A stretch of 64,000 nt of DNA, taken from IMG/VR virus record IMGVR_UViG_3300005529_000029, positions 1 through 64,000 of that record; one strand, 5' to 3'. The notes under the pieces were generated by a model that ran no database searches, was not told the origin of the DNA, and worked only from the letters and a program-made list of their open reading frames with translations. Source of the stretch: a virus. Shown in pieces: positions 1-62,947 of the stretch (its first letter is position 1; each line of letters opens with the position of its first letter). Position numbers and translations under genes: made by a program.

Positions 1-4
1 TTGA

Positions 5-51
5 TGGGGCCTGTAGGATTCGAACCTACAACCAACAGATTATGAGTCTAT
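5..51 (-). pseudogene. 3' half of tRNA(CAU) (Ile2 or Met), att core duplication
   Basis: Minus strand reads ATAGA-CTCATAA-TCTGT-TGGTT-GTAGG-TTCGAAT-CCTAC-AGGCCCC-A: anticodon arm, T arm and acceptor 3' strand; D arm and 5' acceptor strand absent. Confidence 0.88.
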
Positions 52-65
52 TCCCTGCCTTATCT

Positions 66-182
66 ATCGGTTTCGTATACGCTAAATCGGTTTCATTTTC
101 TTTCACTTAACCAAATCTAGCAATTGCACTTGGTTTTTATCGGTTTCACTCGGTTTTATTGACTTGGCACCATTTTGGCACC
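66..182. repeat. Putative integrase arm-type / Xis binding repeats
   Basis: ATCGGTTTC at 66, 86, 139 (variant at 150); TTGGCACC at 164 and 175, next to the att core. Confidence 0.6.
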
Positions 183-245
183 TTTTTCTTGACCTTAGAG
201 GGCAGAATATGTCAGTATATGTTTACGGAATAATGGAGGATTTTT

Positions 246-485
246 ATGCCGGAAGTTTCGATCAATGAGATTATTCAGCCTACATCTGACGTTGACCTAA
301 GCCAGATCGATGACTTCTTCACAGTACCGCAGATCGCGCTAAAACTGCAGAAATCTGAGCAGGCAGTCTATCGGCTAATCCGATCTGGACAGTTACCCCA
401 TGTGAGACTAAGCCAAAACTGCATACGGGTCACAGCCTCACAAATTAGGCAGTTTGTTAATCAGTCTTTAGAGATAATCGAGTGA
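246..485 (+). CDS. Excisionase-like HTH protein
   Basis: FTVPQIALKLQKSEQAVYRLIRSGQLPHVRL motif, GGAGG RBS, adjacent to att. Confidence 0.8.
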   Translation: MPEVSINEIIQPTSDVDLSQIDDFFTVPQIALKLQKSEQAVYRLIRSGQLPHVRLSQNCIRVTASQIRQFVNQSLEIIE

Positions 486-487
486 AA

Positions 488-799
488 TTAGCGCGACCGC
501 AGTTCTGCTAACTGCCTCTCTAGTTCGTCAACACGAGATCGCAATGACGAGAGCTCGCCGTACAGCTTGATCACGATCATCATGTACATAGTCCGGAAAA
601 CGTCCTGCCGCTGAGTGCCCCATAATCTATCGATGACATTATCGCCAAGCGCGAGGGTGTTATGAACTTCGGCCGATTCCCACGGAGACATAGAGCCCGT
701 CATCGAAATGAATCGATTCTTTTCGCGCTTCCAGATATCTTTATTGACCTTGAGCCTTTGATCCCAGGGCTGTTGATTGTTTTTGCTTTGGTGCGCCAC
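488..799 (-). CDS. Hypothetical protein
   Basis: 103-aa ORF with C-terminal coiled coil, convergent with xis. Confidence 0.4.
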   Translation of the reverse strand: MAHQSKNNQQPWDQRLKVNKDIWKREKNRFISMTGSMSPWESAEVHNTLALGDNVIDRLWGTQRQDVFRTMYMMIVIKLYGELSSLRSRVDELERQLAELRSR

Positions 800-1366
800 G
801 GAAACCCCTCCAGGAGCGTCTTCCCGTTGCGGCAGAGGCAGGATAACCTCGAACTTGACAGGAAAATAATAACAGGCTTCGTGTGCATCTCCAAACCGGC
901 ATCAAATCACTGCAGAACCTTGACACAACCGTGCCCACTATACAATCATTCGTCACGTGAAAGCCTGCACTGCGCACGTTCGTGGTTCGAACGCTTGTTA
1001 AAAGCGCAAGGCTGGAAACCCTATAGATGCCAGATCTGCGGATACCGATTTATCGCGAGATAGGGTTTCACTGACGATAGTCGGGTTCACAGATGAACCA
1101 CAGTCAGATAGGGCCTCTTACGTCAATCTCGCAACTGTCTGCCGTAATTGATTTATGAGTATTCCACTTCCAGGGCTTTTCGTAATCATTTCGCTGGGCA
1201 TCGCTGGAGGATGGCTTTCTCGTCACCTGTGGCAACGATCAAAAACCATCGCGATTTATTTTGCTCTTCAATCAATGATCCTGTTTGCCGTTGGCGTGTT
1301 CGCGCTGGTTCATCGCTTGTGATGGCCCCTTGACTTTGGATTGTCGCTGGTAAATTATTCCCGCCT

Positions 1367-2164
1367 ATGAATGATTGTGCGATCAAAGCCGAAGGCTTGG
1401 GCAAGCAATTCCGCTATTCACTGCTTGACTCAAAACACCAAACTGACAAAGACCAGACTTATGCAGATGGAATGGAACAATACTTTGATGGAGCGCTAGG
1501 CTCGACAGTAGACAAGCTCCGCAACTTCACAAAGTTTGTTCCGCGGCAGTCTCTCAGTATTTTTCTGGCTAAGCACGAACTGTTTAAACTTGCGCAGAAC
1601 GCCCACGGCAACATCGTAGAGTGCGGAGTGCATTTGGGCGGAGGGCTGATGACCTGGGCGCAGCTATGCGCAATTTACGAACCATATTCGCACGTCCGCA
1701 GGATCATCGGCTTTGATACTTTCACTGGCTTCACTGCCGTCTCAGCAAAGGATCAAGGAGCGCCTGTCCAATTCAAAACAGAGGGCGGACTGGCGACAGA
1801 AGCCGAAGAAGATTTGCAGGAGTGTATTAGATTGTTCGATCTCAATCGCCCCATAGGTCATATTCCAAAAATCGAACTAGTCAAAGGTAATGCTTGCCTG
1901 ACTATACCTGAGTACGTTGAGCGCAATCAGCATCTTGTCGTTTCGCTCTTATATCTGGACTTTGATCTATACGAGCCGACAAAGGTAGCGCTGGAAATCT
2001 TTCTTCCACGAATGCCAAAGGGTGCTATGATAGCATTCGATGAGTTGAATCAGGAAAGATGGCCGGGAGAAACTCTGGCTGTGTTGGAAACGGTGGGTAT
2101 TAGGAATCTTCGGATCCAGAAGATTCCTTTCACCCCTGGGATGTCGTATGCAGTGATAGAGTGA
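1367..2164 (+). CDS. TylF/MycF-family sugar O-methyltransferase
   Basis: GNIVECGVHLGGG, IIGFDTFTGF, LLYLDFDLYEPT, FDELN motifs. Confidence 0.85.
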   Translation: MNDCAIKAEGLGKQFRYSLLDSKHQTDKDQTYADGMEQYFDGALGSTVDKLRNFTKFVPRQSLSIFLAKHELFKLAQNAHGNIVECGVHLGGGLMTWAQLCAIYEPYSHVRRIIGFDTFTGFTAVSAKDQGAPVQFKTEGGLATEAEEDLQECIRLFDLNRPIGHIPKIELVKGNACLTIPEYVERNQHLVVSLLYLDFDLYEPTKVALEIFLPRMPKGAMIAFDELNQERWPGETLAVLETVGIRNLRIQKIPFTPGMSYAVIE

Positions 2165-3004
2165 TCAGTATACAGCCCACCGCGTGTCTAAATAACTGGT
2201 CAGGTTGGTAACATCGCCGGCCGAAAGGGCAGTGCTATAAACTCCCATCTCTGCAATATACCCGTTGAGAGTAAACGAAGATGTCCCGGAGTTGTTAATA
2301 CGCGAGCCGATTCCCCCGACATCGGTGCCTGTGCGCGCAAAGGTACTGCTACTGACCACCGTCCTGGAGACGCCATCGAATGTTATCGTATAGCTCCCCG
2401 TAGAAGTGTTTGTCCCACCATTATAGGTCGCGATTAAAATGTGCCAATTGCTATCAAAGACTGGATTGTAGCCGACTCCAGTCTGCGAACCAGCCAGATC
2501 ATTAATGAAGCTGACCGTCGTGTAACCCGCGACGGAGTTAATGATCAGCAGCTCACTGAAGGTCGTATTCTTCAGGGTAAACAGCTCGGCAGAGTTTCCC
2601 GATGAAAGCGATGCGACCTTATATACGATGAAAAAGCTCATCTGCCCTGATACGGCCAGAGTATCGTTAAACGCATCGTCGCTTCCATCAAATTGTAGAA
2701 CCTGCTTGCCATTCTGGATCGCCAGCTTTAACAACGGGCGCTTGCCCGAAGTCGACTGAGTGACGTTATTACCCTGACCACTCTGATCCTGCCAGCACCC
2801 AACCGGATCCGTATCGGCGGATGCAGCCGTGGTACAGCTAGATGCCTGGAATGTGCCAGTATCAGCTTTTAACCATTGCTTCAGGCCAGACGGTGTAGTC
2901 GGCGTCCAAGGTCCGCTAGGATACATAGGAAACCGGCGCACGGTTTGCGCTAACGACGGAACAATCATAGCGAAAAGGACAAGGGCGCAGAATAATTTCC
3001 TCAT
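2165..3004 (-). CDS. LamG/concanavalin-like domain protein with signal peptide
   Basis: WLKAD...WQDQSG...RP...NG...FDGSDD and GYIAEMGVYSTALS motifs; N-terminus MRKLFCALVLFAMIVPSLA. Confidence 0.7.
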   Translation of the reverse strand: MRKLFCALVLFAMIVPSLAQTVRRFPMYPSGPWTPTTPSGLKQWLKADTGTFQASSCTTAASADTDPVGCWQDQSGQGNNVTQSTSGKRPLLKLAIQNGKQVLQFDGSDDAFNDTLAVSGQMSFFIVYKVASLSSGNSAELFTLKNTTFSELLIINSVAGYTTVSFINDLAGSQTGVGYNPVFDSNWHILIATYNGGTNTSTGSYTITFDGVSRTVVSSSTFARTGTDVGGIGSRINNSGTSSFTLNGYIAEMGVYSTALSAGDVTNLTSYLDTRWAVY

Positions 3005-6000
3005 TATGGCAAGGACCTCCTCATCGTGACTTCGACCGCAACCAGGCGTCCCGTCGTAATCGGACTTGCCTCTGATCCATCCCGAGCAATCTTTAGGTGC
3101 ATTAGTTTGTTTGCCCCGCTACCCGTAATAGTGATCGAGGTCAGAGAGCTATTAGTTATCTGATTCGCCGATCCAGGCGCAGCAGTCGTAACCGTATTCG
3201 CGGTATTGAATGCCGGATCATCGGTAGCGCTCGCATTGTCGCCTGTGAATGCGGTAGAAACCAGCCATTTACAGTTACCGCTAGTTGAGGAGGTAAACCA
3301 GATGATCCGGACATCAATATTGCCTGTAAAATCTAACGGCAAATACAGAGTGGTCTGCGCGGTGGAGGCTGTCGAAAAATCGAGTACTCCCTTTTGCGTG
3401 TTTGTCCCAGTGACACAGCTCGCAGATGCCGCATTGCTGGTCGGCAAATCCCAGAATGGGCCAGCAGTCGCGTTATTGCAGCCAGCCCCAGGCAAAAGCA
3501 CTTTAGCTGGAAATGCATTCTCAGCAATCGTCACGCTGCCATTGCCATTGTCGGTCAGCCATCCGGCTGGAACGGTTAGTCTTGATACGGCTTGAACCGA
3601 CGTGGCTGCATCAGCAGTGACCACGGTCAACGGTATAACTCTCTGACGATCCCTGGCTCTCGCCTGCGCATTGACTCTGTCCTCTACCGCCGCTGCCATT
3701 TTCGCATTGCCCGTGTTTCCAATGTGCAAGCCATCGCTGTACATATCGACACTTGGGTCGACCGAGCTAAAATAATCGACCAGGGCGATGTTGAGCCCAT
3801 AGCCAGCAAGTCGATCAACGACGTATCTAATGTTTTTGTTGTATAAGGCGACGTTTGCATCGCTTCCGCCAAACGTTGAGTATCCCGTGCTATTCGCTCT
3901 CGGTATCAAACCAGCATAGACCTGTGGACCTGATTGAGAATTGATACCGCCATTACCAGCAACCCAATCAATAGTTGCATTATTGCCGGTCGTGGCAGGA
4001 GCGGTGATGACGACTGTGTGTGCGCCAAAATCCAACCCGTCAATGATGATCGTCCTCGGGCTATAATTACGACTGAAGTCGGTATTCACCGTCGCTGCTG
4101 GAATGCAATTGAACGTTCCTTTTGACACGCCATCGACGGTTACGCTCCACACGCCGTTCGTCGTCACCCCATCAGAGACAGGACTTTCAATAAAAACCGT
4201 ATCTCCTAAAACCGGAGGGAAAGTGAGAGTAGACAATGTTCCTGTGGCAAATAGCGTCATGGCGCCGCCATAGGTTGAATTGAGCGTCCAGCTTCCTGTT
4301 TTGGTTACTGATGAGTCGTTGGCACGTATCTTAAGCGCATCAGGAATTCCCAGCCAAAGCAGTTCTGCTTCTAAGCCCTCACGAAACACTTGTACCGAAC
4401 CAGCAGTGGCGCTATGGCGTTCGTTGTTGGTTCCAATTAAGAGGAAGTTCTGAGTCGAGTTCGTTGTGGGGACAATAGTTGCATAGATCGCGTCGGCTTG
4501 GTCAGCAACCCACGAACCAGCAAGACCAGAATCGGTATAGTGGCCAAACCAGCCCTGGGCATTTGCGACTAGTTGCGTGTACCTGTGCGCGGCATCTGTT
4601 GGTCCGGTCGTGGCCGCGTCATCTGTCAGCGAGTCACCAAAGAAATGAACAGAGTTGCCGGTTGTGTTTAAGTTTTGATTGCCGCCCGTCAGAGCAGCGA
4701 ATGCGCCGCCCTCGGTCGAAAGCATTACTTGATGAGTGCCCGAGTCGTAATAGAATTTAGCGAAACCTGCCGCGCTAAGAGCAGGGACCGTTTGACCCGT
4801 AAGAATCAGTGGCGCTTTCAGAGTAAAATCGCCGTTGTTCTGGATCGTTGCTCGGCTGAATCCATTATGCGTCTGGAAATCGATGACGCCTGTTCCAGAA
4901 CCGCCACTATCGGCGCCTATTGTTGTCGAGCCAGCGTTAATTACACCGCCAGGATTTCCAAGCCCAGTACAGGCTGAGCAATTGATCACAGGCGTTCCGA
5001 GAAATGTTCCCGAGAGCGTTCCGCCAGAGATCGTCGGGCTTGTATATGTTCCTCCAATTATGCCGCCCGTGTTCGTTACTATGCCGGCGACGATTCCGCC
5101 ATTTATGGTAGGACTGTTGAGAACTGTTGTGTTGAGGGTCTTGCTCGACATAGTTCCGGGCAAGTCGCCATCTAAAATACTACTGAAACCAGTGTCAGTT
5201 CCGTCTGTTCTAACATATGTACCAGCACCGCCCCGAGGCACAGCGGCCCACTTATTGGCGGAATTTCCGACAATTATTGCGCCGCGGGTTGGTGATCCAG
5301 TAGCCGTATCGCTATGAAGCGAACCGAGTAAGCTATGGCTCAAAGTAATCGCGTTCACCTGTGCTGCGATCGCCTCAACTTCATCAGATGTTGCAAGCTG
5401 GATCTGAGAACCATTTAGATTATAGAGTTGATTAGCCGCAAGAGTTGTCTGAGTAATTGGCGATGTACTCGCTGGAATATTGTAATAGAACGGACCTTGT
5501 CGTGAGGCTCCATTCACGATCCACAGCACATAAAAGGTATTTGGCGAAAGCCCGATCGTGCTGTAGAGGCTGACCGTATAATTGCCACCACTATCGAGTG
5601 TCCGGCTAACACTGCTGCCACCAACGATAAAAAACCCGTCAAATGTCGTTGCAGTTTGCGCGAGAGCCCAGACAGCCTGTCCAACCATCGGAGAGCCATC
5701 AGGATTCGTCAGGGTTCCGTTGATTGTCGTCCTACTATTCTGTACGTTCAGACTTATTGTCGCCGCTGAACTGGTCACACTTCCAGTCGTACAAGAGCCA
5801 GTCGTAAATGCAGTAGCGGTGAACGTAAACGAATCCGTTCCCGCATATCCCGACGCGCTAGTATAGAGTACCAGTCCAGTCGCGCTATTCAATTGTGAGA
5901 GCGTTCCATGTGATGGTCCAGTGCCAATCGCATAGGTTATTGCGCAACCTTCAGGACTGACCGCGGGCATGTAGATCCTACGCACGAATCCTGTGATCGC

Positions 6001-6193: not shown

Positions 6194-7162
6194 CTATGTG
6201 ATTAAATCCGCTGGCTGCTTATCAGGTGGTCCAGGATCGCTACCACCACTGCTACCACCACTACCACCGCTTGAAAATTCAACAGATATAGGTGTTGAAA
6301 ATGGACTCCAAGGTCCATTGATTCCTGCTGAGCTGTGCGCAACTTTTACATGTCGTGTCTGTAATCCAGTGTCAGAATGCCGAGTGACAAATTCATAAGT
6401 TGGATCAGAGATGCCTGCTAAGAGATCACGATAAGTTGTGGTCAGGTTTGTTGTGAATCCAGCATCATCGGCAGAGATAACTTGTCGCGCAACTGTGTAT
6501 GGACCGAAACCGCCAACTTTAAGAGTAATGCTCAAATCGCTTGAAGCCCCGAGCTGTGCAATCGTCGGAGTATTATTCTCTCGATTCTGAGCATACGGTC
6601 CATTGAAAGTGACATCTGCCCAACTCGAATATTTACGAATACCAAAAGCATTTATGGGATTGAAACCAACCCAGATCGTTTGATCTTTTGCCCAAAAGTT
6701 ATTGATCGTGATTTCCGTATTAATGCTATATGGTCCATACTCTTTCACTGCATGAGTAGGATCGCCATCTATCCTAACTCCAACGATTACACCGGCTGCA
6801 TTAATGGTTGGAGTAGGTAAGGATATTGGAAGCGCTTCCGGACGAAAGATTAAGTTTAATCCTCGGGAAGGTCGAACGACAATATTCATTCCAGGAGATG
6901 CAGTGCCACTTACTGTAACCTGTTGTGCCCATCCCTTACGTCCATGGCCGTCATCCTCAAGTCTGAAATTTACATGTGTTCCCACCGCTACTGATAAAGT
7001 CCCCGCTGGAATATTGCCACTCGAATCCGTTGAACCAATTGAACCGAGATCAGTATTCGTATCTGCGTTATAGGCTTTAATAGTCTTGCCAGCAATAGGA
7101 GTTAAAGACCCATCAGAGTCTTTAAATATGCTAACATTAAATGATCCGTAATTGCTCGACAT
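6194..7162 (-). CDS. Putative minor tail protein
   Basis: Position in tail operon, beta-rich sequence, GPWSPFS FnIII-like end. Confidence 0.55.
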   Translation of the reverse strand: MSSNYGSFNVSIFKDSDGSLTPIAGKTIKAYNADTNTDLGSIGSTDSSGNIPAGTLSVAVGTHVNFRLEDDGHGRKGWAQQVTVSGTASPGMNIVVRPSRGLNLIFRPEALPISLPTPTINAAGVIVGVRIDGDPTHAVKEYGPYSINTEITINNFWAKDQTIWVGFNPINAFGIRKYSSWADVTFNGPYAQNRENNTPTIAQLGASSDLSITLKVGGFGPYTVARQVISADDAGFTTNLTTTYRDLLAGISDPTYEFVTRHSDTGLQTRHVKVAHSSAGINGPWSPFSTPISVEFSSGGSGGSSGGSDPGPPDKQPADLIT

Positions 7163-7171
7163 CTTAAACTC

Positions 7172-7423
7172 TTATTCTGTTGTCGGTTCGCAATAATTAG
7201 CCATGCCTTGATATACGGCACCTATTCTTAGCAGAGTACCAGTGACAACATTGATTGTCGGTTCGACTACAACACCCTGGGAATCGCTCTGTAATCCAGG
7301 ATCAGGAGAAACGGCCGCATCCAATGTTGCATTGAATGTCGTCAATGAGAGATTAGGGACAATAGTCGCATCATAACCAGTTCCTTGCTTATAAACATCG
7401 AATGTCAGCACGATCGAGCTCAT
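7172..7423 (-). CDS. Small putative tail protein
   Basis: In operon between tail genes. Confidence 0.5.
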   Translation of the reverse strand: MSSIVLTFDVYKQGTGYDATIVPNLSLTTFNATLDAAVSPDPGLQSDSQGVVVEPTINVVTGTLLRIGAVYQGMANYCEPTTE

Positions 7424-27728: not shown

Positions 27729-28598
27729 TTAAGCCTTCGCTTTCTTTGGCTCTAACTGATTCACAAAACCAAGCTGATCAAGCTGGGTATGAATCTGTAA
27801 CCAGTCCTCTTTGGAGTCTGGCATTCGGTTATGCGTCTCAAGGAACTCGCAATAGAGATGCGTTACATAGACCATGGCCATAAAGGCAGTCGAGGTATTG
27901 ATGATCCGCATTGAATCCTTGGCTTCGATAATAGCTTTCGCAATTTCTGGAAACTGCTCTTTGGCTCCAATCAGATGTAACTTGGATCCATTGGTAATCT
28001 CCTTTAGGCAGCTCTTTAGAGACTCCAATTCCTTCGGCAGAAATAGCAGGTCAATCGACTGCATAACTAATGCTTGATCAGAGAACGCTTTGAGGTCGAT
28101 TGGTTTGAAAGCCTCAAAATAAGTGTCATCAATTCCGGCATATTGCTTGAGAGCAATGTCCTCAATCTCTTCCCAGATTTTCTTGAGCTGGCCAGGATCA
28201 TCTTCACCGACGATCGAGTTATGCGAGATACGAATAGCAATCTGTTGCTGTCGGGAAAGGTTTCTATTGGTATAGATATAGAAGTGGTACTTCTCTCCCG
28301 CTTCATGGCCTGCTCGAATGCGATGGTGTCCACTAAGGACATAGATTTTGTTATCTTTATCGATCCAGCAAAGCGGCCAGGATGATGACGCTCCATCGGC
28401 TTTGATATTCGCTACGAGTTGCTGAAATTGCTGCTTCTTCATGAAACGTGGGTTATCTTCAGCAAAGATAAACTCCTCGAACGTGCCTACACCTAATCGA
28501 AAAGGTTTTTGGTACTTTTCGAATGTAATATTAAGAGGAATCAGGCTACTTTTGAATTCGCTGAGCTCGGTGTCTTGCTCGCCCATTTTGACCACCAT
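27729..28598 (-). CDS. ParB/Srx-like protein
   Basis: NPRFM...LVANIKADG...VLSGHHRIRA...HNSIVGEDD. Confidence 0.8.
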   Translation of the reverse strand: MVVKMGEQDTELSEFKSSLIPLNITFEKYQKPFRLGVGTFEEFIFAEDNPRFMKKQQFQQLVANIKADGASSSWPLCWIDKDNKIYVLSGHHRIRAGHEAGEKYHFYIYTNRNLSRQQQIAIRISHNSIVGEDDPGQLKKIWEEIEDIALKQYAGIDDTYFEAFKPIDLKAFSDQALVMQSIDLLFLPKELESLKSCLKEITNGSKLHLIGAKEQFPEIAKAIIEAKDSMRIINTSTAFMAMVYVTHLYCEFLETHNRMPDSKEDWLQIHTQLDQLGFVNQLEPKKAKA

Positions 28599-29173
28599 TC
28601 TTGATAAAACTGCTTCATTCCCTTATTTGGCCAATCGGCATAATAAGTGAGAGCACCTACTTCCCTTTTGATGCACTCCATATAACTTCGATATTTCATT
28701 GATGATTGGCGATGTGTCCAGGCGGTTGTGATTACACCAACCGATTTTAGAAGGTTTGTCTTCTCCAACTCAGCGCGCATTTCATTGCTGAGAGCAATCA
28801 TCGCGATTAACTTTGAGGCTAGTTCATGTGGTTTTGGCTCGATCGGAAAGTCTGATAGCAGATACCAGATTCGTTTATTAATGAAGTCATGACGAATCCG
28901 GCTCATCTCAATAAAGCCAAGAACTTTTCCATCGGCGAGAACGGCAAATCCTTGCTCGGCTGAGCAGAAGTCTATGTGCCTGGCAAGGAAGAGTCCCTTG
29001 TAATACTGAACATCTGCAGTACTAAAGACACCAGTGGGATGTGAGTTTTGAAGGATTAACTTCTCAAGAGAAAAGTCGCCTGAACTGCCAATGATGATTT
29101 GCTTGTCATTAAAGACTGAGGCATTCTTGGCAATAAAACTTCTGATATTCGCATTAATCGAGCTTGCAAACAT
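28541..29173 (-). CDS. ParB-associated DNA modification protein (methyltransferase-like N-terminus plus GNAT-like C-terminus), apparently shortened
   Basis: MFASSI...GSSGDFSLEK and YLLSDFP...SKLIAM...TTAWT...SMKYR motifs recalled from longer phage homologues. Confidence 0.5.
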   Translation of the reverse strand: MFASSINANIRSFIAKNASVFNDKQIIIGSSGDFSLEKLILQNSHPTGVFSTADVQYYKGLFLARHIDFCSAEQGFAVLADGKVLGFIEMSRIRHDFINKRIWYLLSDFPIEPKPHELASKLIAMIALSNEMRAELEKTNLLKSVGVITTAWTHRQSSMKYRSYMECIKREVGALTYYADWPNKGMKQFYQEWWSKWASKTPSSANSKVA

Positions 29174-45982: not shown

Positions 45983-46657
45983 ATGGACTGCCCTTTCTGC
46001 GGAGATGAGATTCTTACCGAAATAGAGATTGGCCCAGATCGAGAGTTTTATGCTCAGTTTTGTTGCTCTGAAGCCGAGAGCATCATGCATGAGATGGATC
46101 GTAAGACCTGGGCCAATATTCTTCGAGAATGTGCTGGCATCAAAATCCGTCAACCCTTTGATGCAGGTCTCACCTGGCAATTAGATTTCGGCCTCGAAAT
46201 CGTCACAGTCGAACAAAGAGACGCAAAAGACTTTATTCGGAAATGGCATAGGCATAATCCTCCTCCGGCTGGCTGGAAATTCGGTTTTGGAATAGCCAAT
46301 GGCGCCGATCTTATTGGAGTTTGCTGGGTAGGTCGTCCAGTCGCTCGAATGCTGGACCATAAGACAATCATCGAAGTTAATAGATTATGTGTTCGAGATG
46401 ATCTGCCAAAAGCTCTCACTTGGAATGCCTGTTCTCAGATGTATGGCGAGGCCGCGAGAAACGCCCAAGCAATGGGCTATCAGAAGATAATCACATATAC
46501 ACTGATTACTGAGGAAGGTACGGCATTAAAAGCTGCTGGCTGGCAGAAAGAGTTGGTTTCGAGTGGTGGCACTTGGGATCGGCCAAGTAGGTATAGAAAG
46601 CAGAAGTCACCGACAGTTCCTAAGATTCGCTGGGCAAAATATCTCGTTTCAGTTTAA
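45983..46657 (+). CDS. XF1762/Mom-like GNAT-fold putative DNA modification protein
   Basis: WHRHNPPPAG, VGRPVARMLD, EVNRLC, NACS, IITYTL..E.G..LKAAGW. Confidence 0.75.
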   Translation: MDCPFCGDEILTEIEIGPDREFYAQFCCSEAESIMHEMDRKTWANILRECAGIKIRQPFDAGLTWQLDFGLEIVTVEQRDAKDFIRKWHRHNPPPAGWKFGFGIANGADLIGVCWVGRPVARMLDHKTIIEVNRLCVRDDLPKALTWNACSQMYGEAARNAQAMGYQKIITYTLITEEGTALKAAGWQKELVSSGGTWDRPSRYRKQKSPTVPKIRWAKYLVSV

Positions 46658-47720: not shown

Positions 47721-48869
47721 ATGATAAAGAATAATCCAGATGCTCCGATGGAGTTCACATTAAAGAAAGAAGACTTCCTGCGAGAGTTAACGCTGATCCA
47801 GGGCGTCATTGAAAAGAAGAGCACGATCCCAATCCTCTCGTATATTGCGATCGCTGCAAACGAGATAGGTGAGGATGGCAAAATCACTTTGATTGGCACA
47901 GATATGGATTTAAGTCTGACATCGACATGTCCGGCGAATATCAAGAATGCCGGCGTCGTTACAGTATCTGCAAAGCGGCTATTTGAGATCGTCAGGAATC
48001 TGCCAGATGAGCCGATCCATATCAAATGGATCGCTAATGATGGTATCGTCCTAACCTGCGCCAAATTCGTCTCCAAAGTCCTCGGCGCCGATCCAAATAC
48101 TTTCCCGGCGATCGAGACAACTGAGCAGCCAGGTATCGAAGCGAATAGCAAGATTCTTGCCGATCTGATCGCCAGAACCTCATTTGCAATCACCACGGAT
48201 GAATCTCGATATGCTCTTAATGGCGCTCTAATACTTCGAGAAGGAAAAAACCTCGTAATGGTAGCGACTGATGCGCACCGGCTTTCAGTAGCTCAATCTC
48301 AAGCTGAAGAACCATTAAAGGCTGGCCAGAAGTTACGGGCCTTGATTCCAAAGAAGACACTTTCAATGCTCTCAAAGTTATTGATAGGCATCGATGAGAC
48401 AATCACCTTCATTGAAGATGGCAATCACTTCTTCTTCAATATTGGAGAGCGAGTTCTAGTATCGAGATTACTTTCTGGCCAGTTCCCGAATTACGAGCTG
48501 GTTCTCCCGAAAGATAACAACAAGAAGTTGGTTGTAGACGCCTCTAATCTTGGGAAAGCAGTTCGAAGGGTCTCTCTTATGGCAGATGAGCGTAGTCATG
48601 CGGTCAAGTTGTCAGTATCCGATAAACAGATCCAACTTGAGACTAGATCGAGCGAGACCGGCGAAGCAACTGAGATTCTTTCTGCAGAGTACGAAGGACC
48701 AGCTCTTACACTCGCATTCAATGCTCAATACGTGACTGAGTTGCTCAGTGTTATCAGTGCCGAGAAACTGGAATTCGCCCTGAAGGATGAACAGAGCCAA
48801 ATCCAGATTCGTCCTATTGGCGAAGCAAAGATCGATCACAAATACATCGTGATGCCAATGAGGTTATGA
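47721..48869 (+). CDS. dnaN: DNA polymerase III beta sliding clamp
   Basis: STIPILS, GTDMD, ESRYALNG, VATDAHRL, GQFPNY, FNAQY, YIVMPMRL. Confidence 0.96.
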   Translation: MIKNNPDAPMEFTLKKEDFLRELTLIQGVIEKKSTIPILSYIAIAANEIGEDGKITLIGTDMDLSLTSTCPANIKNAGVVTVSAKRLFEIVRNLPDEPIHIKWIANDGIVLTCAKFVSKVLGADPNTFPAIETTEQPGIEANSKILADLIARTSFAITTDESRYALNGALILREGKNLVMVATDAHRLSVAQSQAEEPLKAGQKLRALIPKKTLSMLSKLLIGIDETITFIEDGNHFFFNIGERVLVSRLLSGQFPNYELVLPKDNNKKLVVDASNLGKAVRRVSLMADERSHAVKLSVSDKQIQLETRSSETGEATEILSAEYEGPALTLAFNAQYVTELLSVISAEKLEFALKDEQSQIQIRPIGEAKIDHKYIVMPMRL

Positions 48870-49214: not shown

Positions 49215-49403
49215 ATGACAAAGAAGAAAGAGCTAGACATCAATAATCCTGACATCGCAAGCATTGGTATCGAGATTGATTGCACATCTAAAGGTGGCCG
49301 GAGGGAAGCTCAGGCTGTCTTCAACTCCATTGATGCGAGTATTAAGAAGAAATTAAAGAGCCTGAAAAGATACAAAAAGAGACACGCAAATAAGGAGCGA
49401 TAA
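49215..49403 (+). CDS. Small basic protein homologous to the TMP N-terminus
   Basis: AAAGGAG RBS; DINNPDIASIGIEIDCTS versus TMP DINNLDIASIGIEIDSTS. Confidence 0.8.
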   Translation: MTKKKELDINNPDIASIGIEIDCTSKGGRREAQAVFNSIDASIKKKLKSLKRYKKRHANKER

Positions 49404-49405
49404 AA

Positions 49406-51049
49406 ATGTCGGCCATAATAGAAGTGCAAAAACCACAGCATAGGAAAGAACGAGCTAACCCGGACTGGCCGGTTAAGGTCTACTCATATTGGATTGAGCC
49501 AATAGGCGATATCCCGGAATGGTTTTGGTTATTCCATGATCATATGCAACTACTCTGGAACGATATGGTGATTGCGCATGATGCTTTTATTGACGAACGT
49601 GAATTCTCTGAAGAATCAGATGGGAAATGGGATACAGATCGTAAACGGCTTGAATTCTCTGGCCTACGTGAGAAGCTCAAGAATGTGGCCAAGTCTAAAA
49701 AGGGTATTCTTCCTAGCTCATGCTATTATGAGGTTAGGGATCGATTTCTCATCACGATGGGCAGATATTGGAATCCTGACTCCACACTAAAACGCAGACG
49801 AAACGAAACAAAGAATTTCGATCTTGGGCGACCTGGAATGAAATTTGGTCGCAATAAAGTACTCATCCCACATGATTTGAATGCTGCAAATATCTCAACG
49901 TCTATTCTCTTTTCTAATAAAAAACCTCTCACCATTTTGCAGCGCACAAAACAACAGGGGCCGACGCGAGGAATTTTTGAGACACTCGGTTATAACTTTA
50001 ACTTTCGCATCAATCTTCATCGGCCGATTCCAAATGGTAATATCAAGCGTATCGCTATTGTCGGGGAAATGGTTAAACCATTTGGATGGCAGTGGCGACT
50101 GAACCTGACCATTGAAGAGCCACCAGTAAGACCTCAAAGGAAGAATGGTAGGGTTGCAGCAATCGACCTTGGATGGCGTTTAATGGACGATTGTATTCGA
50201 ATAGGCGTGTTAGTTGATAACAGTGATAATGCTATTGAACTATCCATTCCGCTGGATTTTGCGAATAATTCGCTAAGACGTCAAAGAGAGCATTTCATGG
50301 ACGTGACCGATGCATGTCTTCCTATACATTCTATTCCAGACATCTGGAAAGCTCAACAGGAGTCAGACCTCATCTTAGAAGTCTGCAAAAATCGTCTAAC
50401 CGCTCTTATTCCTGAGCTTTTACCAAATAAGGTTGCATGGGATAAGGCTCGACATAAGAGTCTTATTAAGTTACTCAATACATTGCGGGAAGATCATCCA
50501 GAGAGTTCCGCAATTGCAGTTATAGAGCAGTGGCGTACGACAAACTGGGTTCTACATAGAAGATGGCGGGCAGCATATGAACGATTCATGAGATGGAGGC
50601 GTGAAATCTACAGAGTCCTGGCTGCGGAGATTGCTTCTACGTATGACGAGATCGTTTTAGAGGATCGTTTGAATCTAGCAGAGATGTCGAGAGACGAACA
50701 GGCACCACCAGCTATCAAAGCAAGTCAAAAATACCGACACTGGACATCGCTTTATCTCTTTAAAGAATGCTTAAAATATGCGATGGATAAACAGCAAAAA
50801 CTCATTATCGCGGGTAAAACTGCTTACTCAACAGCAACTTGCTCAACCTGTGATGGTAAGATTAATACCGATGCTTCACTCTATCTAACCTGTGCTAATG
50901 GGCATACCTTGGATCAGGATCTTAATGCAGCGCGAAACCTATTAAAATCATATCCAGAATGCGAGAGCCTCCCAGGGTTAGAGTCGCCGATTAGGCACTC
51001 GCAACTTTCTAAGTGCGTTAGGACGCTAAGTCTTTTAAAATCACTATAA
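49406..51049 (+). CDS. cas12m: Compact type V CRISPR effector, Cas12m (V-U1/V-M)-like
   Basis: RuvC-I IDLGWR (D254), RuvC-II VLED (E419), Zn finger C479/C482/C496/H500, RuvC-III DQDLNAARN (D505); LWND and HRPIP motifs; array 9 nt downstream. Confidence 0.8.
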   Translation: MSAIIEVQKPQHRKERANPDWPVKVYSYWIEPIGDIPEWFWLFHDHMQLLWNDMVIAHDAFIDEREFSEESDGKWDTDRKRLEFSGLREKLKNVAKSKKGILPSSCYYEVRDRFLITMGRYWNPDSTLKRRRNETKNFDLGRPGMKFGRNKVLIPHDLNAANISTSILFSNKKPLTILQRTKQQGPTRGIFETLGYNFNFRINLHRPIPNGNIKRIAIVGEMVKPFGWQWRLNLTIEEPPVRPQRKNGRVAAIDLGWRLMDDCIRIGVLVDNSDNAIELSIPLDFANNSLRRQREHFMDVTDACLPIHSIPDIWKAQQESDLILEVCKNRLTALIPELLPNKVAWDKARHKSLIKLLNTLREDHPESSAIAVIEQWRTTNWVLHRRWRAAYERFMRWRREIYRVLAAEIASTYDEIVLEDRLNLAEMSRDEQAPPAIKASQKYRHWTSLYLFKECLKYAMDKQQKLIIAGKTAYSTATCSTCDGKINTDASLYLTCANGHTLDQDLNAARNLLKSYPECESLPGLESPIRHSQLSKCVRTLSLLKSL

Positions 51050-51058
51050 ATTGCCGCT

Positions 51059-51289
51059 GTGACAACTCTTGCTCAACCGAGTCTCGGTTGAGACACTGCG
51101 CTGCCAATTCCTTGGCGGAAAGCTCAAAAAGTGACAACTCTTGCTCAACCGAGTCTCGGTTGAGACGTCTTGCCTCTGCTTCTCTCCTCGAGCCTTTCAC
51201 TGGTGACAACTCTTGCTCAACCGAGTCTCGGTTGAGACAGCGGAGGACGCGAGCGACAGCCTACCCTAATCCGCGTGACAACTCTTGCT
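51059..51289 (+). CRISPR. Mini CRISPR array: 3 full repeats, 1 truncated repeat, 3 spacers of 36 nt
   Basis: GTGACAACTCTTGCTCAACCGAGTCTCGGTTGAGAC at 51059, 51131, 51203; first 15 nt at 51275. Confidence 0.97.
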
Positions 51290-51363
51290 GAATTTTATTA
51301 ATGAATATATAATTCTGCTGGTTATCATTGGGTTATCTTTTTGAACGAGAGTTTGACGGACCT

Positions 51364-51390
51364 AGGGCTTCGAAAGAGGCCCTTTTCTTT
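51364..51390 (+). terminator. Intrinsic terminator after the array
   Basis: AGGGCTTC-GAAA-GAGGCCCT-TTTCTTT. Confidence 0.8.
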
Positions 51391-51470: not shown

Positions 51471-53066
51471 ATGTCTCTTCTTAGCGACGTAAAACGAGCG
51501 CGTTCTTGTTCTGTGCCAATTATCAGGATTACGACCCCTGACCCAATCAATTTGATGTTGACGTTAGCTAATGATGGGGATCCTACCCAGCAACATACTG
51601 AAGCACCAAAAGTCGGTTGGGACTGCATTCGTGGGCATTTCCACCTGAACAAAGCCGGTGAATCCTGGATTAACTCAAAGCTGAGTATTCCCGATCCGAA
51701 GGATGCGAACAAATTCAATAAGACGAACATCGTCACAGCGCCCGAAGCTGTGGGAGTCCTATTATCGCTTCCGGAAAATAGTATAGCTGTAATGCTTAAT
51801 GCCCATCGGTATCTGACCAATGATGCAAATGGCGCGCGGTTTATCCAGGTCCTGATGAATATCAGGGACCGGTTTAAGAATAATGGCCGAACTCTCTTCC
51901 TTCTCACAACCGATTGTCCTTTACCAATCGAGCTACAGCATGACGTCGTGAGTCTCTCAGAAGATTATCCAGATGACAAAGCGCTAAAAGAGATCATCGA
52001 GCCAATCTTTAACGATGCAAAGCTCTCTCCGACCAATGACATGGTTGAGAGAATTGTCGATGGGATTCGTGGATTACCGGCTTTTCCCGCTGAACAGGTG
52101 ACAGCAATGGCAACGACCATTGGCAAAGGCGTCGACGTTGATCTTCTCTGGCGACTAAAAGAACAGCAGATCAAAAACATCAAGGGTTTACGGTTCGACA
52201 CGTCCAGAGAAACATTTGACGATCTCGGTGGGCTCTTAGCCTGGAAGACCTTTACTCACCGGCTTCTCTCAGGGCGACAAAGATTCAAGCTAGTCGTCCG
52301 TCTTGAAGAGATTGAGAAAGCGATGGCTGGAGTTGGCGGCGATGGAAAACACGGTGATACATCGGGTGTCTCGGCCGGGATCCTCGGTTATCTCCTTGAA
52401 GTCTTCGAAGACTATGGCTGGACGGGAGCTTTACTTTTTGGGGTTCCGGGCAGTGGGAAGAGCGCGAGCAGTAAAGCACTTGGCAATACATTCGGAATCA
52501 AAACGATGGTCATGGATATTGCCGGAGCGAAAGAAAGTTACGTCGGTGCATCAGAACAAAATGTCAGAGAGCAGGTCAAAGCAATTAAGGCAATCGGTGG
52601 TAATGACATTTTATTTCTAGCCTCGTGCAATGGACTTGATGCTCTTCCACCAGCTCTAAAGCGTCGGTTCAAACTCGGCGTCTGGTTCTTCAATACTCCG
52701 ACAAAAGAAGAGCGAGAGAGCATCTGGACTATTAACGTCAAGAAGTTCAGCCTGAATGAGAGCCAGGAACTCCCGGATCAAGACGGTTTGACCGGTGCAG
52801 ACATCAGGAATATCTGCGAGATCGCGTATCAGCTTTCGAGTCCGACAGAGGAATGCTCTTTAGCTGAGGCAGCTCAGTACATTGTTCCAGTCTGCAAATC
52901 CGATCCGACTTCAATCACTCAGATGCAGACTCTTGCTGATGGGCGATTCTTATCAGCCAGTTTGCCTGGGATCTATCGAATGAATCCAGAAGAAGAGATC
53001 GCAATTCCTGAGTCAAAACAATCACGTAGATTCGCGCATGAATCCGATCCAGGTTTCACTTTTTAA
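51471..53066 (+). CDS. Ycf46-like AAA+ ATPase with rearranged motif order
   Basis: DLGGL, EEIEKA...GDTSG, GVPGSGKS, YVGASE, LPPALKRRF, LTGADI. Confidence 0.85.
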   Translation: MSLLSDVKRARSCSVPIIRITTPDPINLMLTLANDGDPTQQHTEAPKVGWDCIRGHFHLNKAGESWINSKLSIPDPKDANKFNKTNIVTAPEAVGVLLSLPENSIAVMLNAHRYLTNDANGARFIQVLMNIRDRFKNNGRTLFLLTTDCPLPIELQHDVVSLSEDYPDDKALKEIIEPIFNDAKLSPTNDMVERIVDGIRGLPAFPAEQVTAMATTIGKGVDVDLLWRLKEQQIKNIKGLRFDTSRETFDDLGGLLAWKTFTHRLLSGRQRFKLVVRLEEIEKAMAGVGGDGKHGDTSGVSAGILGYLLEVFEDYGWTGALLFGVPGSGKSASSKALGNTFGIKTMVMDIAGAKESYVGASEQNVREQVKAIKAIGGNDILFLASCNGLDALPPALKRRFKLGVWFFNTPTKEERESIWTINVKKFSLNESQELPDQDGLTGADIRNICEIAYQLSSPTEECSLAEAAQYIVPVCKSDPTSITQMQTLADGRFLSASLPGIYRMNPEEEIAIPESKQSRRFAHESDPGFTF

Positions 53067-61463: not shown

Positions 61464-62237
61464 ATGTCATTATTGCCTGCGCAAGAAATTGCGTCTGAAT
61501 CTTTCTCTGAGCTTTCACCGGAGTTCACTGCAAATGGACTTGCCAGAGAGTTCGAGAGTGATTCCTTAACTGAGACTCAGATTAGTCGCCTGCTAAATGG
61601 TTTCGAGCAGGCGACTAACGTTATCGATCTAATCATCCCTCTGGTTCCAAGGATCAAGAATACTGAGCATGTCAGTTACTTACGCGATGCTTCTGATAAG
61701 TTAGGTGAAAAGTCCTGGCGTTTAAAGATCGCCTGTGATTCCGAGCTTATTCACCGAGCTGAGGCCAAACGTGGCCGAGGCCACAAAGACCTCGATGGTA
61801 TTGGTGTCGTCGCTCAGGTTAGGAAACTGGCATACGAAAAAGGCGTTTCAGCACGTCAGATATTCCTCAATGATCAGATCCACAAAACATTCTTCAAAGA
61901 ACCCGACGAAAATATTGAAAGCGCAGCCACCACTTTAGGACCGACTTTTTTCAGGATCGCTCTCTCTGCTGAGGATCCAAAGACAGCAATTAAGGTCTTT
62001 GCCAAACAGAAAGATGACAATCCTTTCTTTAGCACCCGCGATGCTGAAGTGATGGTGGGTAAAAAACCTTTCAGACGGGTCGACTTTGAGAGAGTTGAAC
62101 ATTTAATTCAAGCAGGTCAAGCAGTGGTTGACATTTGGCAAACACACTTCGCCGACCTCGAGGATGATCCCGAAATCCGTAGCGCGTTTAATGAACTTGA
62201 GAAGGAAATCAAATCGTTTAACGAGGGTAATGTATGA
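61464..62237 (+). CDS. Hypothetical protein, possibly DNA-binding
   Basis: AAGGAG RBS. Confidence 0.6.
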   Translation: MSLLPAQEIASESFSELSPEFTANGLAREFESDSLTETQISRLLNGFEQATNVIDLIIPLVPRIKNTEHVSYLRDASDKLGEKSWRLKIACDSELIHRAEAKRGRGHKDLDGIGVVAQVRKLAYEKGVSARQIFLNDQIHKTFFKEPDENIESAATTLGPTFFRIALSAEDPKTAIKVFAKQKDDNPFFSTRDAEVMVGKKPFRRVDFERVEHLIQAGQAVVDIWQTHFADLEDDPEIRSAFNELEKEIKSFNEGNV

Positions 62238-62947
62238 TTTGGCCAACATTAGATACGCCTGCACCGCCACTATCAGATACGTTTATTAGTGATATTGATA
62301 CCGAGGTAAAACATTTGCATCAATATTGTTATGATCATTATAACCTTTTAGCAGATCCGCTTTGGAATGACGCTGAATTCCCAAGCGATGGTAGTCCTAT
62401 TCCATACAGAAATAATGCCATCCGATATCCCCTTGGTCCTAATACTGAAGCCTATTGGCGAGAATATACGATTACTGATACCGACACTGGAACATATTTA
62501 GCAGGCATATGCCATTATCCAGTTGATCGTGATGAAGCGATCCAGGTAATTGCCAGCCTGATATACACGCTGAAAACCTCTTACGGCGATGAATATTCAT
62601 TCTCGATTCTGGAGCTCATTAAAGAATATGAGGCAATATCTCATCTAAGCGAGATTCTTTATCAGCCTTGTGATAATCAAGCTGGTGCCCATCTAGCAGG
62701 TTATATCTACCTCCTAGAAGCCGAAGAGACGGGATCTTATAAGATTGGTCGTGCAAAGGACCTAGACAACCGCATTAAAACATTTGAGGTAAAACTGCCA
62801 TTTGAAACCGAACTGCGCCATTCAATCAAAGTTCAAGACATGGCCTGTGCGGAGTTGGCTCTTCACAAAAAGTTTGCAGGTCGCCGTATAAATGGCGAGT
62901 GGTTCAAATTAACTCCTGAAGACGTTTCCTGGATTTGTTCATTATAG
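62234..62947 (+). CDS. T5orf172/GIY-YIG domain protein
   Basis: GYIYLL...YKIG...RI...E..LH..F...RINGEWF. Confidence 0.85.
   Translation: MIWPTLDTPAPPLSDTFISDIDTEVKHLHQYCYDHYNLLADPLWNDAEFPSDGSPIPYRNNAIRYPLGPNTEAYWREYTITDTDTGTYLAGICHYPVDRDEAIQVIASLIYTLKTSYGDEYSFSILELIKEYEAISHLSEILYQPCDNQAGAHLAGYIYLLEAEETGSYKIGRAKDLDNRIKTFEVKLPFETELRHSIKVQDMACAELALHKKFAGRRINGEWFKLTPEDVSWICSL

Follow-up and report, generated by a model that had tools for sequence, protein, structure and literature searches.

Organization of the cas12m locus

The window analysed here comprises bases 1-64,000 of IMGVR_UViG_3300005529_000029, a 75,239-bp linear virus record in IMG/VR that is about 79% complete according to CheckV. 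It carries the gene of a type V-M effector, cas12m, which is followed at once by a small CRISPR array. The gene lies on the plus strand between positions 49406 and 51049, with its stop codon at 51047-51049, and encodes a protein of 547 residues. A Shine-Dalgarno sequence, AAGGAG, can be read at 49392-49397, 8 nt on the 5' side of the ATG. The preceding open reading frame (ORF), which encodes 62 residues on the same strand (49215-49403), terminates at 49403. It is tightly coupled to cas12m, because only 2 nt separate its stop from the ATG.

The array has the same orientation as the gene and begins 9 nt after the stop codon. Three 36-nt repeats (51059-51094, 51131-51166 and 51203-51238) alternate with three 36-nt spacers (51095-51130, 51167-51202 and 51239-51274), the last of which has a G+C content of 64%. 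The repeats are mutually identical; each starts with GTGACAAC, ends with GAGAC and contains the internal arms CTCAACCGAG and CTCGGTTGAG. A fourth, terminal repeat is truncated to its first 15 nt (51275-51289), and a similar stub closes the array of L005, a related locus on a 66-kb contig from a soil metagenome. The unit formed by cas12m and the array, all of it on the plus strand, ends with a hairpin resembling an intrinsic terminator (51364-51383) and a run of T residues that extends to 51393. All coordinates of this layout, from the 547-residue ORF to the terminator, reproduce those of the original prediction, which had been made from the nucleotide sequence alone.

No match to the sigma-70-type promoter consensus was found on the plus strand between the cas12m stop codon and the array. 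Since there is no promoter-like site in this interval, the gap is only 9 nt long and a terminator follows the last repeat, the cas12m transcript would, on the simplest view, have the array as its 3' tail.

Structure and identity of the effector

By profile and by fold the 547-residue protein is a true type V-M effector (Cas12m, formerly V-U1), and it is a fairly ordinary member of that family. An exhaustive HMMER search returned 1590 relatives, with 104 cluster representatives at E < 1e-30, the best of which is 36% identical. When a family profile built from the 41 closest relatives was searched against the PDB, the first matches were all Cas12m structures: 23vw_A (8e-65), 23vu (4e-38), 8hio and 8hhl (MmCas12m2, 1e-22) and 8pm4 (GoCas12m, 5e-21). 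These matches span profile positions ~43-506 of 528. Fanzor/TnpB, TranC and Cas12f rank after them, with E values from 1e-17 to 1e-2, and match the C-terminus only. With the single sequence as query the only clear solved relative is 23vw_A, deposited as "CRISPR-associated DNA-binding protein Cas12m" (E 2e-17). The best PADLOC model is Cas12u1 (3.7e-33), which is an old name for V-M. The only Pfam domain recognized is the Cas12f1-like TNB domain PF07282, at residues 451-512.

This assignment agrees with the predicted structure. The AlphaFold2 model has a mean predicted local distance difference test score (pLDDT) of 87.5 and a predicted template modelling score (pTM) of 0.83. Helices at residues 38-122 form the REC part, and a further set of helices, at residues 310-412, is situated between the RuvC-I and RuvC-II residues. 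The first four PDB structures ranked by Foldseek for this model are all Cas12m. The claim of the original prediction that a phage carries a Cas12m-like effector with its own array is therefore supported by profile, Foldseek, PADLOC and repeat design alike.

The family-wide motifs are in place. The LWN, HR(P), DLGWR, zinc-finger and D-E-D positions are conserved throughout the family. Conservation was counted in the 139 closest cluster representatives, each at least 430 residues long. The WED-domain pair H205 and R206, in the motif LHRPIP (50018-50023, plus strand), is kept as His in 113 and as Arg in 128 of the 139. To judge from the position of the motif, these two residues probably correspond to His269 and Arg270 of MmCas12m2, a conserved pair that contacts the crRNA (CRISPR RNA) scaffold (PMC10442227). 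The CCCH zinc finger of the TNB domain (C479, C482, C496 and H500; 50840-50905, plus strand) retains each of its four residues in 122 to 134 of these relatives.

The C-terminal part is where the protein resembles TnpB. The NCBIfam TnpB models match residues ~375-526 only, and the PHROG "transposase" models likewise match the C-terminal third. Such matches, and the lack of a classic array beside some relatives (L004 and L002), might be taken to mean that the protein is a TnpB of the insertion sequence (IS) IS200/IS605 type or an intermediate between TnpB and Cas12, with a role in transposon maintenance and with the "array" as a by-product. This is most improbable. The scores are far below the cut-offs (46.5 bits against 100 for NF040570, and 41.9 against 350 for NF038280), and the matches over the whole length, in profile and in fold, are to Cas12m and not to IS-associated TnpB. 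The gene is present as a single copy in the record, there is neither a TnpA gene nor a pair of IS ends, and the ATG follows the previous stop by 2 nt, too little for a left end to fit in. What follows the gene is a genuine repeat-spacer array whose handle covaries, in the place of an omega-RNA. An intermediate position between TnpB and Cas12m, which had been suggested at the outset, is likewise not supported: the protein has the full Cas12m architecture and the typical Cas12m length.

The RuvC active site

The three acidic residues of the RuvC domain, D254, E419 and D505, are all present and are aligned to the corresponding D, E and D of 23vw_A. The RuvC-I aspartate (motif IDLGWR; 50165-50167) is found in at least 90% of the family. 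The RuvC-II glutamate lies in the motif IVLED (50660-50662), and the RuvC-III aspartate, in the motif DQDLNAARNLL (50918-50920), is invariant in both alignments used, A1 and A2; all three codons are on the plus strand. The complete D-E-D triad occurs in 122 of the 139 relatives (88%), the remainder being scattered among NED, DND, DKD and other variants. The median length of these relatives is 547.5 residues, so that in triad and in size the protein is typical of its branch.

Cas12m clades have been distinguished by their triads as HEK/HQK, HDD, DED/NED and DED/DND/NED, with D-E-D described for clades 3 and 4 (PMC10442227). The D254/E419/D505 state falls within this described range and matches clades 3 and 4. 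Cas12m proteins with D-E-D, H-D-D and N-D-D triads all bind without cutting, and protect against phages and plasmids by means of that binding (PMC11013384).

The original prediction had read the intact triad as a sign of possible nuclease activity or of an intermediate status. The residues are indeed there, but they neither set the protein apart nor predict activity, because D-E-D is normal in the branch and the four D-E-D orthologues tested in published work gave no cleavage of double-stranded DNA. The intact triad is thus no evidence for either proposal.

It could nevertheless be supposed that in the natural setting of the phage the D-E-D RuvC domain cleaves or nicks target DNA, or else replication intermediates that are single-stranded, and that interference occurs by cleavage. 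The conservation of D254, E419 and D505 among the relatives would accord with this, and DNA hydrolysis by clades 3 and 4 was indeed speculated upon by Wu et al. and Omura et al. (PMC10442227). Moreover, the processing of precursor crRNA (pre-crRNA) by MsCas12m does not need RuvC, leaving the conservation of the domain unexplained (PMC11013384). Against this, none of the four D-E-D orthologues tested (MsCas12m, ApCas12m, TfCas12m and UnCas12m) cleaved double-stranded DNA (PMC11013384). Of these orthologues, studied by Bigelyte et al. 2024, MsCas12m, with 536 residues, is similar in size to the present protein, and UnCas12m came from an IMG/VR contig (PMC11013384). With purified MsCas12m neither DNA nor RNA was cleaved and no collateral cleavage was seen (PMC11013384), and conversion of the HDD triad of MmCas12m2 to DED did not restore cutting (PMC10442227). 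A catalytically active effector is on balance unlikely.

The repeat RNA and the absence of adaptation genes

The 3' half of the repeat folds into a 9-bp hairpin (-13.2 kcal/mol, z -2.3). The hairpin covaries among four distinct repeats: 8 bp are paired in 100% of the cells, and three pairs are altered on both sides. The score was attained by 3 of 500 shuffles and collapsed in the slid controls, the sample being small at four sequences. A covariance model of the repeat found only the three array copies in this phage, and Rfam gave no family match in the window or in the array region.

No anti-repeat longer than 13 nt occurs in the 75-kb record. Pairing of the repeat with the downstream region was calculated at -20.0 kcal/mol, compared with a contig mean of -19.8 +/- 3.7, and is no better than that of 45% of random windows. 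A small RNA carrying an anti-repeat downstream of the array had been considered and was rejected for two reasons: its pairing energy is no different from the mean over the contig, and conservation of the element does not extend to L005. By this computational test the system would have no partner resembling a trans-activating crRNA (tracrRNA), and its guide would be a single crRNA.

The Cas1, Cas2 and Cas4 families (PF01867, PF09827 and PF01930) gave no match in the 75-kb record, itself about 79% complete, although the controls did. The original observation that cas1, cas2, cas4 and an anti-repeat are missing thus holds for the record as a whole. Characterised Cas12m effectors bind DNA in a manner dependent on the protospacer-adjacent motif (PAM), use no tracrRNA and process their pre-crRNA independently of RuvC (PMC11013384).

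Relatives and distribution

An array placed ~10 nt after the gene, with 36-nt repeats, is also found in the metagenomic relatives L005 and L003 and in the IMG/VR contig L011. The L005 array ends in its truncated terminal repeat, and the arrays of L003 and L011 run off the ends of their contigs. L011 (IMGVR_UViG_3300045125_000094, 1-2573, minus strand) has a repeat of the same family in at least 10 copies before the contig ends. Two overlapping ORFs, 817-1746 and 1587-2573, make up its cas12m, an interruption that reflects either a frameshift or an assembly error. No homologue of the terminase or the major capsid protein of the present phage was found in the virus record of L011, and the phage that carries L011 appears to be unrelated. 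A search of viral contigs for related loci with the protein, with its relative P0002 or with alignment A2 returned no locus.

Among the 301 Acidobacteriota genomes sampled, a family member was found in only one, and there it lacks a classic array. A chromosomal family member, L002 (Acidobacteriota metagenome-assembled genome OY969418.1, 4890-7300), is an ORF of 627 residues with 26% identity and no classic array. Two 30-nt copies (6804-6833 and 7232-7261) are situated 428 nt apart in L002, around a palindromic sequence that resembles a repetitive extragenic palindrome; they may represent a disrupted array or one with a single spacer.

The loci of the relatives have no flanking genes in common with the present locus. 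They carry phage-type DNA methyltransferases. Because the flanks are not shared, the L011 virus is unrelated and only one of the sampled Acidobacteriota genomes has a member, the cassette looks like a mobile one whose soil carriers are mainly phages or other mobile elements, a reading to which the methyltransferase neighbours lend weak support.

Spacer targets and stability of the array

Exact 20-mers from each of the three spacers had no match in IMG/VR, and comparison of the array with 50,697 reference phages gave matches at chance level only. Nothing longer than 14 nt was found in the 75 kb of the phage itself or in the related loci, so there is no self-target. In the reverse direction, the spacers of L011, L005 and L003 had no match in this phage. 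The derivation of a 5' PAM from spacer matches in viral databases, as envisaged in the original prediction, has consequently yielded none.

One apparent protospacer, for a spacer of L005 in L008, proved to be an assembly artefact. L008 is a 4.6-kb metagenome contig whose ends, 1-140 and 4497-4636, repeat each other in inverted orientation apart from small indels, and this arrangement mimics a protospacer match.

Four metagenome runs, drawn from three studies (two of soil in 2017 and one of a mine in 2024), contain the locus at 99% identity or more. The public runs listed as containing it included no RNA run, which has no bearing on whether the locus is expressed. Spacers 1, 2 and 3 are unchanged in the metagenome contig pieces, and cas12m shows no differences across the four runs. 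The sole difference between positions 48800 and 51700 is a G>T change at 49349, inside the 62-residue ORF, and it was seen in the mine sample from 2024; apart from it, soil and mine samples collected years apart contain an identical phage. There is thus no sign of spacer turnover, as would be expected if Cas1, Cas2 and Cas4 are absent.

Such constancy might also be expected of a cassette that was acquired horizontally and has since been idle or decaying, being either unused or left with three obsolete guides. The array comprises just three spacers, its last repeat is degenerate, the searches disclosed no targets for it, and it does not differ between samples. The cas12m of the related viral contig L011 is split by a frameshift, and the absence of common flanking genes is the behaviour of a mobile cassette. 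On the other hand, the ORF is full-length with all family-conserved residues intact, and it has a strong Shine-Dalgarno sequence and tight coupling to the gene on its 5' side. The three repeats are 100% identical and the gene has not changed over four runs. A truncated terminal repeat is normal, and the array of L005 has one too. An idle passenger is for these reasons an improbable explanation.

The carrier phage

The structural genes of the phage, encoding the tape measure protein, major head protein, protease, portal and large terminase, are on the minus strand. From ~33 kb onwards a plus-strand block of early and replication genes includes those of an AraC-type regulator, a Mom-like protein, a sliding clamp, Cas12m with its array and an AAA ATPase. 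Immediately around cas12m the order is sliding clamp, two small ORFs, cas12m, array, terminator and AAA ATPase. Beyond the window the block continues with a replication initiator of the helix-turn-helix type, a DnaC/IstB-like loader, an N6/N4 methylase, DUF5131, an HNH endonuclease and RNase H.

The original prediction had spoken of a prophage, which the record does not bear out. Neither a tyrosine or serine recombinase (PF00589, PF00239), nor a tRNA, nor a host-like flank was found in the 75 kb, and phage-type genes are present at both ends. A temperate lifestyle is conceivable all the same, the record being incomplete. An identical 547-residue protein is encoded on a 102.7-kb contig, whose length is equally compatible with a complete genome of the size that CheckV implies (~95 kb) and with a provirus flanked by host DNA. 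The best explanation of the carrier is a tailed soil phage of roughly 75-100 kb.

Some of the Cas12m relatives carry Acidobacteriota labels. In 7 of the 401 Acidobacteriota genomes sampled there are relatives of the large terminase (TerL) with 50-53% identity, a count made with no control phylum. The terminase homologues of three Acidobacteriota loci (L012, L013 and L014, in genomes G251, G040 and G070) are 43-53% identical to the phage TerL, compared with 38% for the best reference phage. These similarities hint at related prophages in Acidobacteriota and at that phylum as a possible host.

Two neighbours of cas12m have resemblances of their own. The 62-residue ORF copies the N-terminus of the tape measure protein of the same phage (10203-15533, minus strand), with 55% identity across 47 residues (E 6e-11), and is absent beside cas12m in related loci. 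The AAA ATPase right after the array terminator (51471-53066, plus strand) has a weak PADLOC match to IetA (7e-10) and is not a conserved neighbour of cas12m in the loci of the relatives.

Candidate DNA-modification genes are those of a Mom-family protein (45983-46657), a phage GNAT/DAM-like protein (28541-29173), a TylF-like methyltransferase (1367-2164) and an N6/N4 DNA methylase (L009, 1865-3343). Their number suggests that the phage may invest heavily in evading host restriction. A protein with a T5orf172/MUG113 (GIY-YIG-like) domain, encoded at 62234-62947 on the plus strand, matches the PADLOC candidate system PDC-S57 weakly.

Proposed function

The locus is probably a self-contained V-M cassette, consisting of cas12m and a three-spacer mini-array within the replication operon of a phage, that would block the DNA of a competitor or of the host by binding to it. 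Of this proposal, what is observed here is the identity of the protein and the anatomy of the locus; crRNA processing, DNA binding and the roadblock are expected from the properties of the characterised Cas12m proteins (Mm, Go, Ms and Pm).

In the proposed sequence of events the cassette would be transcribed together with the replication genes, the array forming the 3' tail of the cas12m messenger RNA. Cas12m would then cut the pre-crRNA inside the repeats without the use of RuvC and release three crRNAs, each with a repeat handle of ~30 nt and a guide of ~17-20 nt. The complex of Cas12m and crRNA would bind double-stranded DNA flanked by a PAM, form a stable R-loop and stay in place, without cutting, as a roadblock to transcription or replication. 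Because the guides are three in number and fixed and would be expressed alongside the replication genes, rival phages, whether co-infecting or resident, or other mobile elements are the likely targets, host genes being less likely. The roles in inter-phage competition or host gene silencing that were first put forward for the system are both plausible.

Three observations weigh against this proposal. The searches of IMG/VR, the reference phages, the phage's own genome and the related loci disclosed no protospacer, so that the proposal is left with neither a target nor a PAM. The array is the same in samples from three studies and gives no sign of guide turnover. Lastly, 88% of a family whose members are only ~30% identical have kept the D-E-D triad, and this looks like selection for some catalytic use that the published assays do not explain.

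The last point admits a more speculative explanation, which is unlikely in our view. The compact, largely phage- or mobile-element-borne D-E-D branch might keep its RuvC domain under selection as a conditional nuclease, and its place in a replication operon would in that case point to action at replication forks instead of the simple silencing of transcription. For example, given in vivo conditions or a cofactor from the phage or the host, and only then, the enzyme might nick the displaced strand or cut the single-stranded replication intermediates of a rival phage. As to why D-E-D should be so strongly conserved in a family whose members are reported not to cleave DNA, a phage-borne member beside replication genes is a reasonable test case.

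As a DNA-binding cassette the locus adds a further natural case of a phage using a miniature CRISPR effector that lacks adaptation genes; it is not a new kind of system. The branch is diverse and mostly uncharacterised, and for base or epigenome editing the small size of such effectors makes them appealing as compact DNA binders that can be programmed.

Comparison with known systems

MsCas12m of Meiothermus silvanus (536 residues, D274/E429/D518) is like the present protein in its size, its D-E-D triad and its zinc finger. The repeats are of the same design: they are 36-37 nt long, start with GU(A/G)(G/A)CAA, contain a CUCA..UGAG hairpin and end with AC. The repeat in the MsCas12m pre-crRNA (Bigelyte Table S5) has GUAGCAA at its 5' end and CUCAG...CUGAG followed by AC (PMC11013384). 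MsCas12m and other D-E-D V-M effectors likewise have no tracrRNA and no adaptation genes (PMC11013384). The two proteins are distant in sequence, however, and the gene described here is situated in a phage replication operon whereas that of MsCas12m is on a bacterial chromosome.

The best solved relative, 23vw_A (577 residues), can be aligned over residues 201-514 and also has a D-E-D triad. The motifs DLGWR, IVLE(D/E) and DQDxNAA(R/K)NLL are common to both proteins, and the N-terminal REC and WED parts have diverged too far for single-sequence alignment. The name given to it on deposition is "DNA-binding protein", and a +10 offset in the numbering of its residues suggests that it may be TfCas12m.

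MmCas12m2 (8HHL/8HHM/8HIO) and GoCas12m (8PM4), which make up the first four Foldseek matches, have the same overall fold, with TM scores of up to 0.66-0.70. Like the present protein they have two lobes, long REC helices and, within RuvC, a helical insertion. They differ in having ~600 residues, an H-D-D triad and actinobacterial chromosomal loci, and are only 13-14% identical in the structural alignment.

TnpB (IS200/IS605) and Cas12f have the RuvC/zinc-finger (TNB) core PF07282 in common with the present protein, but measure only ~400 residues, are without the helical insertions of REC and RuvC and work with a long omega-RNA or a tracrRNA. In the profile comparison they match over the C-terminus alone, with E values of 1e-7 to 1e-13.

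The closest parallel in setting is MvCas12m of myxophage MV-1, which a preprint of September 2026 claims as the first phage Cas12m (bioRxiv 10.64898/2026.09.14.751636). It too is phage-encoded and has a D-E-D triad and an adjacent array; cas1, cas2, cas4, a tracrRNA and identified protospacers are likewise lacking (bioRxiv 10.64898/2026.09.14.751636). MvCas12m differs in its length of 610 residues, its eight spacers and its myxobacterial host. The Cas12m described here is a further, smaller example, carried by a phage different from MV-1.

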